Shown one piece after another: positions 27,363 to 30,383 of a stretch of 64,000 bases of DNA. Position 1 is the first letter of the stretch. Every line of letters begins with the position of its first letter. The DNA is from a virus: the IMG/VR virus record IMGVR_UViG_3300027861_000010; one strand, written 5' to 3'. The notes under the pieces were generated by a model. The model was not told the origin of the DNA. It ran no database searches and saw nothing but the letters and a program-made list of their open reading frames with translations. A program made the translations under genes and the position numbers.

Positions 27363-28238
27363 GTGCCAACAAGACAAGATGTCACTTGTCTTCACACTGC
27401 TCAGGGCGGAGAAATTTGGAGCGTGGAGGCCGGGGGCAACCCAAAGAAGTTTCTGTACTTAAATAACCCACTTCGTTTGAAGACTGGGATGTACAGGATT
27501 CTGGGTTGTCCCGGCAACTACAAACTGATTACCGAATTGTATTCGTCCCTGAACAGGAGAGAAGACAAGTCAACCGTATTGGTGGGGTCTCCAGTTATCT
27601 GCAAAGGACGTAAACATACGCCCGAGCAGGTGCTATCGTGTATTTCTGTATTGAATGTGCACGACGGGTTAGTTCACCGATGGCATCGAGCTGATAGCAA
27701 ACTGTTCAACAACTATTTGCTGCTTCACTACTTTCAAGAGGAGGGAATCAATGATCTTGTCGGCAACATTTACGGCCACCACTGCCTGACCAGATATTTC
27801 AGTTTCATGGGCCTGAACTCGATGAAATTGGCGGTACAATTGATCAACGAGGTGGGAGATCCAAGGTGGTATTTGAATCCCAAAAGGCCGTACCGCCTTT
27901 CCAGGCTCGAGAGCTATTTTGGTTTGAAGCCTGCCCAGTTTCACCGAGTTTGGGGAGATAGTCAGGCGTCGGCGTTACTTGGTGACGCAGGCCAACGCAG
28001 TCTGTTATTGTTGGACATCGTTAAGAGCTTACCGACAGATGGCTTTGTTGCTACCGAGGCGGAACACGTTAAGGATGAGACTGCCAGAATCATCTTGATG
28101 TGTCGGCTGGTGCTGGGTTTCATAATGCGAAACTGGCTGACTGAGTACGGACTCGGCGGTTACTTCGACCCTAAATTGTTTTTCAAGAAGAAGGGAAACC
28201 TGGCTGATTTTCAACGCCAGTTCAAGGATCAGGCATGA
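27363..28238 (+). CDS. IS110-transposase/Nop-like protein, apparently lacking the catalytic motifs
   Basis: LAVQLINEVGDPRWY...SRLESYFGLKP resembles the IS110 C-terminal AA.L+AE+GD..RF...L.SY.GL.P motif; no GIDxxK/DEDD or SG motif seen. Confidence 0.55.
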   Translation: MPTRQDVTCLHTAQGGEIWSVEAGGNPKKFLYLNNPLRLKTGMYRILGCPGNYKLITELYSSLNRREDKSTVLVGSPVICKGRKHTPEQVLSCISVLNVHDGLVHRWHRADSKLFNNYLLLHYFQEEGINDLVGNIYGHHCLTRYFSFMGLNSMKLAVQLINEVGDPRWYLNPKRPYRLSRLESYFGLKPAQFHRVWGDSQASALLGDAGQRSLLLLDIVKSLPTDGFVATEAEHVKDETARIILMCRLVLGFIMRNWLTEYGLGGYFDPKLFFKKKGNLADFQRQFKDQA

Positions 28239-28750
28239 GAGAGCTTTCACTTAAGATTCGATTTACGAATCCGAGCCTGGGTAACGAGAAGGACCCCAGA
28301 TCGGGTCGCTTCAAGTTCCAGCGAAGCCCTGGACGTAACGGAAAGATCCTGTTCCTGGCCACCTGGCACCAAGCCAATCTGAAGATGGCGGCGGACATGA
28401 TGGGTCGCCATCAGGATCACATCAAAAAGATCTTCTGGGATATCGAGATCGACGGGGAGCTTCGAGAGAAGTGTTTGACCCGTTGCTATTACCGGAAGTC
28501 GCCGAAAGGTAGAGAACGTTGGTCGACACACGAGTCGTTGGTCAAAGGCCAGACGATTGGAATCAATTGTGTTGTTCCACACGAGATTGACGACGAGGAC
28601 TTTTGGACCCTGATGCAGATTGCAGGGAAGTACAAGGGTTTGTCGCCGTGGCAGCCTGGGAAGTATGGGCACTACGAGATTGTGAGTATCCGGCCTCGAC
28701 GGAATCACAACACTGAATCGGGCGATACGTCGCCTGGCGATACTGAATAG
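28235..28750 (+). CDS. Stand-alone RAMP-superfamily (Cas7/Csm3/Csf2-like) protein
   Basis: N-terminal LSLKIRFTNPSLG, central HESLVKGQTIGI and C-terminal Gly-rich loop AGKYKGLSPWQPGKYGHYEIVSI. Confidence 0.65.
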   Translation: MRELSLKIRFTNPSLGNEKDPRSGRFKFQRSPGRNGKILFLATWHQANLKMAADMMGRHQDHIKKIFWDIEIDGELREKCLTRCYYRKSPKGRERWSTHESLVKGQTIGINCVVPHEIDDEDFWTLMQIAGKYKGLSPWQPGKYGHYEIVSIRPRRNHNTESGDTSPGDTE

Positions 28751-28764
28751 GATGACAAACGAAA

Positions 28765-28835
28765 ATACCCTCCAGGTGGCGAAGCCTGGAGGGTATCTGC
28801 GTGTAGCGGGATGCGGTGTATTTCGCACGACCCGC
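28765..28835. other. Two-hairpin structured intergenic segment (candidate small RNA or bidirectional terminator)
   Basis: Perfect 12-bp stem ATACCCTCCAGG / CCTGGAGGGTAT (28765-28796); second interrupted stem GCGGG..TGCGG / TCGCA..CCCGC (28806-28835). Confidence 0.55.
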
Positions 28836-28877
28836 GGTTATTCTAAGCCTGAGTAAAATGAAATGCAATGAGGAGTT

Positions 28878-30383
28878 TTGATGCCTAAGAAAAAAACTGT
28901 CACACTCTACAAGTCAGGGAACATCCTGCTTGTAGATCCGACAACCGATCGAATCTTCGAGCTGTTGAAGCCCGTGCTGTCTTTTACAGAAACGCAAAAG
29001 GCACGAGGGGCAGAGGCCTACAGCCGAAAAAGGTCAGGCCGATCTTTATTTGACCGCATAGAGCACACGCTTTTAGAGTTGGACCACCAGGAGCGAATCG
29101 CTACCGCATTCGGCTTTTGGAAGCTGATTCGCGACACCTTGCGGAAACACGGTTATGAGGTCAAGTTCAAGGACTTGACCCCGATTGACGTGAAGAAGTT
29201 GAAGCCATACTGGAACAACATCAAGGATTACGAGTTACGGGATAACCAGCCGGAGTTTATCAAAAAGGTCCTCACAAACCGTTGTGGTCGCTTTGATTGT
29301 CCTCCCGGGTTCGGTAAGTCGTTCATGATCGGTCTAATTGCGGCCCTGCTGCCCAAGGCCAGGATTGATGTCGTAACCAGACGAGTTTCAGTACTACGAG
29401 ACCGCATCTATCCTGAACTCATCCAGATGGTGGGAGATGTTGGTATTGTTGGTGGAGGTAAGAATGTCAAGAAAAAGAGAGTCATGTGTTACACCGTTGG
29501 CTCGATGAACCACGCAACGGCTAGTGACTGCGACATTCTGTTCGGCGATGAATGTCACGAGCTGGCTGCGGATAACTCCGCGGCGGAGTTGGTCCGTTGG
29601 CAGAACTCCCGTAATTATGGACTCTCAGCTAGTAACGACATGCGTTACGACGGCAAGGATCTGCGTATGCACGGGGTATTTGGCCCAATCATTCTCAGCG
29701 TTGATTATGAGCAAGCCAAGAATGCCAACATGGTTGTGCCGATCAAGGTCAGCTGGTCATCTGTGGTGATGGATTACGATCCATGCGGAAACACGGACAA
29801 CGATGTCGAGAAGAAACGACTTGGGTTTTGGCGTAACGAGTGGCGGAATGCTGTGATCGCTGAGGATGCTCGTCGCTACGACGAGGACACTCAGGTGTTG
29901 ATCACCGTCGAGACGCTCGAACACGCGATGAACCTGAAACGTCTACTTCCTGAATTCACTTTGGTATATCGCGAAGACGGTTTAAGTCCGACCGACCGAG
30001 CCAAGTACGCCAAACAAGGTTGCTGCAAAACAACAGAGCCTTTAATGGACGTGAATCGAAGGCAGAAGCTGACGCAGGACTTTGAGAAAGGTAAACTGAA
30101 GAAGGTCATCTGCACGACTGTGTGGAACGTCGGTGTATCATTCAACAACTTAGCTGTGTTGATTCGTGCCGACGGCGGTAGCAGTTCGATTAACGACATC
30201 CAGATTCCTGGTAGAGTAAGTCGAACTGCAAAGGACAAGACACACGGTCTTGTTCACGATTACCTTGACCAATTCAATCAGGCTTACAAGGTACGTGCTC
30301 GCAACCGAGCTAAGACGTATGATCAGAACCGGTGGGAACAGGAGTTCCCTCGGAAATCAATGATGGAAGAATACTTAGGGTGA
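28878..30383 (+). CDS. Superfamily 2 DNA helicase (UvsW-like)
   Basis: Motif I PPGFGKS, motif II DECH, motif III SAS and motif VI QIPGRVSR. Confidence 0.88.
   Translation: MMPKKKTVTLYKSGNILLVDPTTDRIFELLKPVLSFTETQKARGAEAYSRKRSGRSLFDRIEHTLLELDHQERIATAFGFWKLIRDTLRKHGYEVKFKDLTPIDVKKLKPYWNNIKDYELRDNQPEFIKKVLTNRCGRFDCPPGFGKSFMIGLIAALLPKARIDVVTRRVSVLRDRIYPELIQMVGDVGIVGGGKNVKKKRVMCYTVGSMNHATASDCDILFGDECHELAADNSAAELVRWQNSRNYGLSASNDMRYDGKDLRMHGVFGPIILSVDYEQAKNANMVVPIKVSWSSVVMDYDPCGNTDNDVEKKRLGFWRNEWRNAVIAEDARRYDEDTQVLITVETLEHAMNLKRLLPEFTLVYREDGLSPTDRAKYAKQGCCKTTEPLMDVNRRQKLTQDFEKGKLKKVICTTVWNVGVSFNNLAVLIRADGGSSSINDIQIPGRVSRTAKDKTHGLVHDYLDQFNQAYKVRARNRAKTYDQNRWEQEFPRKSMMEEYLG

Follow-up and report, generated by a model that had tools for sequence, protein, structure and literature searches.

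The VIPR (2026) and TIGR-Tas (2025) systems have each been portrayed as programmable weapons, fed by arrays, in conflicts between genetic elements, and the question arises what their signature proteins might do where they stand side by side in a genome and no array accompanies them. Such a locus lies in IMG/VR virus record IMGVR_UViG_3300027861_000010, of which one stretch of 64,000 nucleotides (nt), hereafter the window, was analysed. Within a cluster of replication genes, an open reading frame (ORF) for a TasR/IS110-like protein, ORF1, is followed directly by one for a RAMP-like protein, ORF2, and by a short non-coding spacer. A first-pass annotation, made from the letters of the window without database searches, had proposed that the two genes form an RNA-guided module lacking a CRISPR (clustered regularly interspaced short palindromic repeats) array.

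Here we report structural, comparative and RNA-level analyses of this locus, in which the signature proteins of VIPR and TIGR-Tas are encoded together, without an array, by core genes that evolve slowly in a clade of large marine phages. The reading that we favour, tentatively and at somewhat less than an even chance, is a domesticated, array-less, nuclease-dead RNA-guided module, composed of ORF1, ORF2 and a small RNA (sRNA) with a fixed guide, that would control helicase expression.

Folds and conservation of the ORF1 and ORF2 proteins

The ORF2 protein, modelled by AlphaFold2 (AF2) with alignments at a predicted local distance difference test (pLDDT) score of 92.7, has a single-RRM layout, in which beta1 and helix 1 are followed by a thumb hairpin (residues 81-102), helix 2, a G-loop (135-146) and the last strand, and ends in a variable, disordered tail. 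When the model was compared by VIA-align with a search set of 48,161 chains, the top 36 rows were all CRISPR RAMPs, the best being Cmr4 (6s6b_I; Z 11.8, root-mean-square deviation (rmsd) 3.2 A over 152 residues), and the top Foldseek matches were type VII Cas7 and Csm3 (E 4e-6). The RAMP fold named in the first-pass annotation is thus borne out by 36 of 36 leading matches. By sequence, the protein matches nothing in Pfam (its RAMP families included), NCBIfam or PADLOC and finds only a weak phrog_4652 in PHROGs; a tblastn search of 50,697 GenBank phages gave no match for either ORF1 or ORF2. The ORF2 family comprises 65 clusters by a word-indexed search and 225 representative clusters by an exhaustive one. 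Across this broad family His99 of the thumb is invariant and Glu100 near-invariant, and ORF2 may have a catalytic role.

The closest described sequence relative of ORF2 appears to be Vipr, the RAMP of the VIPR systems. A profile of ORF2 run against all PDB sequences had a single match, the SUSP1 Vipr (36pp_D), at E 0.3 and over the G-loop only, and an hhalign comparison of the 54-sequence ORF2 family with the 28-sequence type II Vipr family gave a probability of 92.5% (E 5e-7) over only 41 C-terminal columns, being confined to the module of helix 2, G-loop and last strand. In SUSP1 Vipr, the residues that contact GGY are H17, R138, D177, W178 and R179 (VIPR preprints). The G-loops align as GVGDWRP in Vipr and GLSPWQP in ORF2, where a near-invariant Pro138 stands in place of the G1 contact D177, the R179 position is variable, and Trp139, like the thumb residue Arg95, is kept only within the closer family.

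For ORF1 the corresponding AF2 model (pLDDT 89.4) consists of a RuvC-like N-domain (residues 1-~110) and a Nop/IS110-C-like helical domain (~115-287). The best VIA-align match was TIGR-TasR (9mty_B; Z 13.2), which covered 235 residues spanning 6-287, and the second was TasH (21kl_A; Z 9.6), which matched the C-terminal domain (115-287) only; the IS110 recombinase ISCro4 (9t56_A) scored Z 8.4 over 234 residues, and the generic RuvC, RuvX and YqgF folds in the lower ranks covered the N-domain only. Foldseek also placed TasR first (E 3e-3, probability 1.0), with TasR and IS621 as its top matches. The earlier description of this protein as IS110/Nop-like agrees with all three of these VIA-align comparisons, to TasR, TasH and IS110. 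Sequence searches of ORF1 gave no match in Pfam, including its DEDD_Tnp_IS110 and Transposase_20 families, nor in PHROG, NCBIfam or PADLOC, and the ESM Atlas returned only unnamed clusters with scores at chance level; the metagenomic family of ORF1 counts 40 clusters by the word-indexed search.

The catalytic residue of TasR is Asp11 (PMC12045711). At the equivalent position 97% of the ORF1 family sequences have His, no Asp or Glu column within residues 1-125 is conserved at 85% or more, and a conserved Cys/His set (C9, H11, C80, H100, H108) is found instead of carboxylates, while the Nop-like domain carries the invariant motifs DPRW, FGL, R256 and W258. As modelled, ORF1 is a dead-RuvC TasR-like protein, which fits the dead-TasR subclass. 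The absence of nuclease motifs, at first claimed for both proteins, holds for the RuvC-like domain of ORF1, with His at the D11 position and no conserved acids, and may not hold for ORF2, in view of its invariant His99-Glu100. A complex prediction for ORF1 and ORF2 with alignments scored 0.07 and weighs neither way.

Synteny was analysed in 31 IMG/VR loci from related marine phages of ~170-235 kb, which share descent. Their genes follow the fixed order SbcC - ORF1 - ORF2 - spacer - SF2 helicase - 260-amino-acid (aa) protein - DnaB - primase. In 30 of these loci ORF2 has ORF1 as its immediate upstream neighbour, down to identities of 34% and 22%, and the pairing is far beyond chance; co-conservation of the two genes in relatives, which the first-pass annotation had named as a test of its proposal, is therefore found. 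ORF1 is missing only from locus L004 (IMGVR_UViG_3300042197_002219, 3849-6492), where sbcC is followed directly by ORF2 and the 51.7-kb record has no ORF1 at all. In L019/L020, L028 and L031 the next large downstream ORF was called on the opposite strand. Relative to locus L002, no protein of the block is as well conserved as ORF2 (78% identity, as against 72% for primase, 70% for the SF2 helicase, 56% for DnaB, 45% for SbcC and 34% for ORF1), and judged by these identities ORF2 behaves as a core replication gene, not as an arms-race accessory. A separate observation concerns a relative (L033; G004:C1:69692-72719), in which a PhuZ/TubZ-like protein carries the tubulin signature GGGTGSG at ~1700-1800; its sequence suggests that the phage clade includes tubulin-bearing jumbo phages.

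The predicted sRNA gene and its match to the dnaB leader

The spacer that follows ORF2 was said in the first-pass annotation to be 127 nt long and to contain two hairpins, and so it is (28751-28877; -47.3 kcal/mol, z -4.5). Among the relatives, whose helicase starts were corrected before the spacers were compared, its length is 94-185 nt in nearly all loci, the exceptions being L016, L021 and L031. Alignment of the minus strand from 15 diverged loci reveals an invariant or near-invariant TTG, with T-A-n-A-(A)-T 16-17 nt further on, and, downstream of these promoter columns, a variable body, a hairpin and a T-run in 15 of 15 loci. On the minus strand of the spacer, a terminator scan also detected a terminator-like site. 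Compensatory changes affect 9 of the 10 pairs of the terminator stem, and cells of the alignment with G-U on the minus strand and A-C on the plus strand (five) outnumber those of the reverse kind (two). The RNAs predicted for the relatives share one fold, in which a 5' hairpin, a linker and a terminator follow each other. Judged from sequence, a minus-strand sRNA gene is the best interpretation of the spacer: the alignment displays the promoter and terminator anatomy of such a gene, and from this anatomy we infer that the sRNA (Table 1) is produced.

Two blocks of the spacer that fall within the predicted sRNA recur upstream of the replicative helicase gene dnaB. The 10-mer of block A, CGTGTAGCGG, has an exact second copy at 31123, at a distance of 78 nt upstream from the dnaB ATG (31201), and block B, GGTGTATTTCGCACGA, has its counterpart GGTGTATTTTGACACGA at 31174-31190, which extends to the dnaB Shine-Dalgarno sequence; the dnaB-leader copy, too, has a hairpin between blocks A and B. 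The complementary parts of the sRNA are those that are exposed, the loop of the 5' hairpin and the single-stranded linker. In most of the genomes, the spacer shares colinear blocks of 9-14 nt with the dnaB leader, and the sequences of these blocks vary by clade, so that the two sites co-vary. Thus, block B takes the form GTGTATTTCACGCG, twice, in L005, GTGTAC.TCGCATGA in L003 and CCGTGTTGGTGTG in L014, and the sequence shared in L029 is GTGGTGTGCA; the linker seed is CGTGTAG in one clade, and the clade of L017, L024 and L030 has AATTGGCTT in place of GTGTAGCGG.

Measured against each locus's own null, the score of the spacer/dnaB-leader match falls within the top 20% in 18 of 22 loci and within the top 5% in nine of them. 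When the 75 gene starts of the window are ordered by duplex energy, the dnaB start region comes second, behind the SF2 helicase leader, to which the sRNA is perfectly antisense, and tiles over the dnaB leader rank 6 of 1274 in the window and 2 of 1938 in a second genome. Apart from one coding repeat, the spacer and dnaB-leader sites are the only occurrences of the 9-mer GTGTAGCGG in a 194-kb relative, and this rarity rules out CGTGTAGCGG as a general phage promoter motif. Counts of mismatch types on permissive alignments were too noisy to use.

Guide arrays, known systems and possible functions of the locus

Repeat scans of the window found no CRISPR-like, TIGR-like or GGY/NN array, in line with the first-pass statement that no CRISPR array is present, and a scan against Rfam returned one tRNA only. 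The genes around the pair are replication genes with no other cas genes nearby; four proteins were scanned against PADLOC and NCBIfam and gave no match, the window not having been scanned exhaustively for cas1 and cas2. The type II VIPR locus of Escherichia phage SUSP1, with its plain GGTNN tracts, served as the positive control of the array scans. The 194-kb relative, which is 94% complete, reached a maximum of 6/10 GG pentamers versus 10/10 in this control, weaker NNNNG-type repeats being outside the reach of the scan, and four further large relatives had no real GGY/NN match. No guide array of interspaced or tandem repeats was found in the window or in the 194-kb relative. The 3' end of ORF2 and the spacer, compared in 25 loci, gave no period-5 signal, and no type II Vipr paralogue was found in five relatives. 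The pair does not depend on an array, since four relatives with a completeness of 93-100% retain ORF1 and ORF2 and have no GGY/NN tract or type II Vipr homologue.

Several candidate guide sources were rejected. A period-5 G pattern at 4263-4317 lies inside a membrane-protein ORF, and the best period-5 signals are all in coding sequence; the sole GGY-like match in a relative is inside a tubulin-like gene; a vrRNA concealed in the variable 3' end of ORF2 is contradicted by the lack of periodicity there. A box C/D-like GGAUGA...CUGA pair in the spacer of the window is not conserved in relatives. Finally, a 36-nt unit present twice at 13261-13333 with 94% identity has copies too few and too alike for a TIGR or CRISPR array.

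VIPR systems combine a phage-encoded minimal RAMP, Vipr, with an accessory gene, vap, and with vrRNAs composed of 9-16 GGY/NN pentamers and a structured tail (bioRxiv 10.64898/2026.04.26.720920,.720927). The present locus resembles them in being a phage-borne two-gene operon outside any CRISPR context, in which a minimal single-RRM RAMP with thumb and G-loop is joined by one accessory gene, as well as in the profile similarity of the helix-2/G-loop module, in what would be a nuclease-free output, and in its location in the replication region. The last is also the setting of the SUSP1 VIPR locus (L032; KT454805, 27500-29500), between a DNA ligase/polymerase block and small ORFs. Unlike VIPR, the locus has no GGY/NN pentamer vrRNA, its GGY-contact residues are replaced, its accessory protein is TasR-like, and the pair evolves slowly as a core element rather than as an arms-race accessory; as candidate RNA the locus has one sRNA, rich in hairpins, whose contiguous seeds are directed against a gene of the phage itself. 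The text of the VIPR preprint does not contain the words IS110, RuvC, Nop or TIGR.

On the Tas side, catalytically dead TasR proteins have been shown to act as RNA-guided repressors, and one long branch of compact, array-less TasR proteins was found in densely packed viral genomes (bioRxiv 10.64898/2026.09.09.750476). By its description, this branch is one that ORF1 fits: the best match over the whole length of ORF1 is TasR, its C-domain matches TasH, and its RuvC catalytic positions are substituted, as they are in PateTasR and CsTasR. In contrast to TIGR-Tas, there is no TIGR array here and no conserved box C/D motif in the spacer, and the candidate RNA would find both of its sites on a single strand instead of pairing with two strands in tandem. 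The text of the TIGRFinder preprint (bioRxiv 10.64898/2026.09.09.750476) has no RAMP, Cas7 or VIPR, and mentions neither a RAMP partner nor an sRNA.

Three further classes of elements bear on the locus. Class 1 CRISPR RAMPs (Csm3, Cmr4, type VII Cas7, Cas7-11) share the fold of ORF2 (Z 9-11.8, rmsd 3.2-3.9 A, 140-157 of 171 residues), whereas ORF2 is without a second RRM or other elaborations and has neither a CRISPR array nor cas genes nearby. IS110 elements (IS621, ISCro4) share with ORF1 an architecture of RuvC-like and RNA-binding C-terminal domains, and it was an IS110-C-like motif that had been spotted in the first reading; unlike them, ORF1 has no DEDD tetrad, no insertion sequence (IS) ends and no non-coding flank for a bridge RNA, and is a fixed syntenic gene (30 loci), not a mobile one. 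The sbcC stop codon is only 7 nt from the ORF1 start and there is consequently no space for IS ends, whose absence had been noted at first sight. Antisense sRNAs, acting in trans or in cis, with a sigma-70 promoter and an intrinsic terminator resemble the predicted sRNA in its -35 and -10 elements, the seed in the 5'-hairpin loop, the single-stranded seed linker, and the terminator with U-tail, and in a target that abuts the Shine-Dalgarno sequence; the sRNA gene differs from them in lying tail-to-tail with a RAMP gene beside a Tas-like gene and in a target that is the phage's own replicative helicase. In the literature searched, no link between the RAMP (Vipr) and Tas lineages was found. Each of the two proteins is, by the comparisons above, of a known kind; their combination, their array-less core status and the predicted link between sRNA and dnaB were not found in that literature.

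In the reading that we favour, ORF2 as a Vipr-like RAMP and ORF1 as a catalytically dead compact TasR would be the protein parts of a module belonging to the core replication operon of this clade. The single "guide" would be the ~80-nt minus-strand sRNA encoded just after ORF2, whose loop and linker would pair with the phage's own dnaB leader up to the ribosome-binding site and which, over its whole length, would also be perfectly antisense to the SF2 helicase leader. The output would be a repression or timing of helicase expression, exerted through mRNA pairing or, as with VIPR and dead TasR, DNA binding. We infer the binding of the sRNA by ORF1 and ORF2 and the direction of the regulation. 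If the three parts do act together, the locus would be a natural case of an RNA-guided effector that, equipped with a fixed guide, has been domesticated to regulate the phage's own genes; it would connect the RAMP and Nop/Tas lineages directly and physically and explain the array-less viral TasR branch that the TIGR-Tas survey left open. The proposal that RAMP, dead TasR and hard-wired sRNA constitute a non-defensive device governing replication via the dnaB leader, through the dosage, timing or loading of the helicase, seems to us on the doubtful side.

A number of observations weigh against the favoured reading. Its weak link is the association of ORF1 and ORF2 with the sRNA, because only fold precedent and adjacency speak for it, and adjacency counts for little because the whole module is syntenic. 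The predicted sRNA is mostly double-stranded, with ~10-15 nt exposed, unlike the long single-stranded guides that RAMP filaments coat. Its pairing is contiguous and follows neither the 1-nt-skip code of VIPR nor the two-strand code of TIGR, so that an antisense RNA acting independently of any protein would account for it equally well. Locus L004 keeps an sRNA-like spacer, with a weaker -10 element (TACATT), beside ORF2 and without ORF1, and the distant loci L016, L021 and L031 have 0-47 nt after ORF2 and no space for the sRNA, which is thus either absent or relocated in them. As to the sRNA gene itself, its -35 hexamer agrees with the consensus at 3/6 positions and the promoter at 8/12, below the threshold of the consensus scan, which called none. 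The proposed target stands out less by a strict single-alignment score, which places the dnaB leader on top in only 3 of 22 loci, and the single-locus matches of 9-14 nt are near noise and come from loci that are related by descent and not independent. Two operators for one protein, or a retained duplication, are possible sources of the shared blocks.

Among the alternatives, the one that survives best is an exaptation without guides, which we regard as fairly unlikely. It holds that ORF1 and ORF2 are ordinary nucleic-acid-binding factors of replication or recombination that work next to SbcCD and the helicases, on ligands such as single-stranded DNA, primers or branched DNA, and that the sRNA is an independent antisense regulator of both helicase genes. 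The position of the pair in the core of the replication operon, its enzyme-like conservation, with ORF2 the best conserved of the module, and the absence of an array anywhere in near-complete relatives all fit such a role. So do the loss of the Vipr GGY contacts (D177 to Pro138, R179 variable), the presence of the pair in the three loci that have no space for the sRNA, and the contiguous sRNA seeds, which require no protein partner. Yet RAMP and Tas folds are known almost only as binders of guide RNAs, the translational coupling of two such genes beside a conserved sRNA gene would be a striking coincidence, and the invariant DPRW, FGL, R256 and W258 of the Nop-like domain of ORF1 suggest a conserved ligand. 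Even if the proteins used no guide, the predicted pairing of the sRNA with dnaB would be a new regulatory feature of these phages.

Rather improbable, in our estimate, is that there is no sRNA and that the first hairpin is a terminator or stability element, while the shared blocks are copies of a plus-strand RNA or DNA operator, which one phage protein, possibly ORF1/ORF2, would bind to co-regulate both helicase genes. The blocks do occur in the same orientation and order upstream of both genes, a hairpin separates them in the dnaB-leader copy too, and the promoter is sub-consensus. However, the invariant columns of the spacer are the TTG and T-A-n-A-A-T of a minus-strand promoter at the right spacing, the T-run follows the hairpin on the minus strand only in all loci, and, of the cells that are G-U on one strand and A-C on the other, five speak for the minus strand and two against it. 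Furthermore, the matched sequences vary freely among clades, as is typical of base pairing rather than of a protein operator.

It is highly improbable that ORF2, with ORF1 as an accessory, is a second effector using the vrRNAs of a distant VIPR array: the G-loop module common to ORF2 and Vipr would suit this arrangement, but the GGY-contact residues are replaced in ORF2, and four relatives of 93-100% completeness have the pair with no GGY/NN tract and no type II Vipr homologue. Phage-encoded homologues of defence subunits can be inhibitors, and both proteins lack the canonical nuclease residues; nevertheless, we see hardly any chance that they are anti-defence decoys that mimic host Cas7/Tas subunits in order to soak up crRNAs (CRISPR RNAs) or tigRNAs or to poison effector complexes, since anti-defence genes are usually variable accessories whereas ORF1 and ORF2 are fixed core genes of the replication operon, purifying selection on ORF2 is very strong throughout the clade, and there is no sign of matching systems in the hosts.

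Locus layout and other features of the window

The arrangement of the locus is collected in Table 1. The placement of the gene pair, with its ATGA overlap, between sbcC and the SF2 helicase gene was correctly described in the first-pass annotation. A 238-aa ORF separates the SbcD-like and SbcC-like genes, a 1204-aa polymerase ORF follows downstream of the primase, and the whole replication/recombination block is co-directional.

Table 1. Coordinates of the genes and predicted RNA features of the locus, as positions in the window
Feature	Position	Strand	Remarks
SbcD-like gene	23113-24462		Upstream of the pair
SbcC-like ATPase	25127-27355	+	phrog_77, E 1e-45; fixed upstream neighbour
ORF1	27363-28238	+	GTG start, 291 aa
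ATGA stop/start overlap of ORF1 and ORF2	28235-28238	+	Translational coupling; direct sequence reading
ORF2	28235-28750	+	ATG start, 171 aa
Predicted sRNA, ~80 nt	28754-28834	-	Predicted ends; fold -43.3 kcal/mol, z -7.4
Parts of the predicted sRNA	5' hairpin ~28806-28834; single-stranded linker ~28799-28805; terminator hairpin 28763-28798	-	Terminator hairpin followed by U-tail
Predicted sRNA promoter	28840-28868	-	-35 TTGCAT (28863-28868), 17-nt spacer, -10 TAGAAT (28840-28845)
Spacer block A common with dnaB leader	28800-28809		CGTGTAGCGG; sRNA linker and 3' stem
Spacer block B common with dnaB leader	28815-28830		GGTGTATTTCGCACGA; 5'-hairpin loop and stem
SF2 DNA helicase	28878-30383	+	Fixed downstream neighbour; predicted sRNA is perfectly antisense, in cis, to its leader
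Proposed target, dnaB leader/3' end of 260-aa gene	31123-31190	+	Block A copy 31123-31132, block B copy 31174-31190
DnaB-like replicative helicase	31201-32859	+	phrog_19, E 2e-21; leader carries the matched blocks
Primase	32849-33937		Downstream of the DnaB-like helicase

All relatives encode the 260-aa protein (30388-31170), a member of no known family, at the same fixed place between SF2 helicase and DnaB; the 3' end of its gene contains block A of the proposed sRNA target, and the protein is possibly a helicase loader.

Other features of the window lie farther from the locus. The 10-mer GTTTTCACTC is repeated five times in perfect tandem at 9929-9978 (Tandem Repeats Finder score 100), possibly as iterons or a protein-binding array. 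The single tRNA gene (63265-63337, plus strand; Rfam RF00005, 63.6 bits) adjoins a very A-rich stretch at 63449-63575. In the SSB/RecA region, at 39600-40350 and 43188-43292, dense in-frame tandem repeats with periods of 9, 15, 21, 27 and 48 encode acidic and lysine-rich tails.

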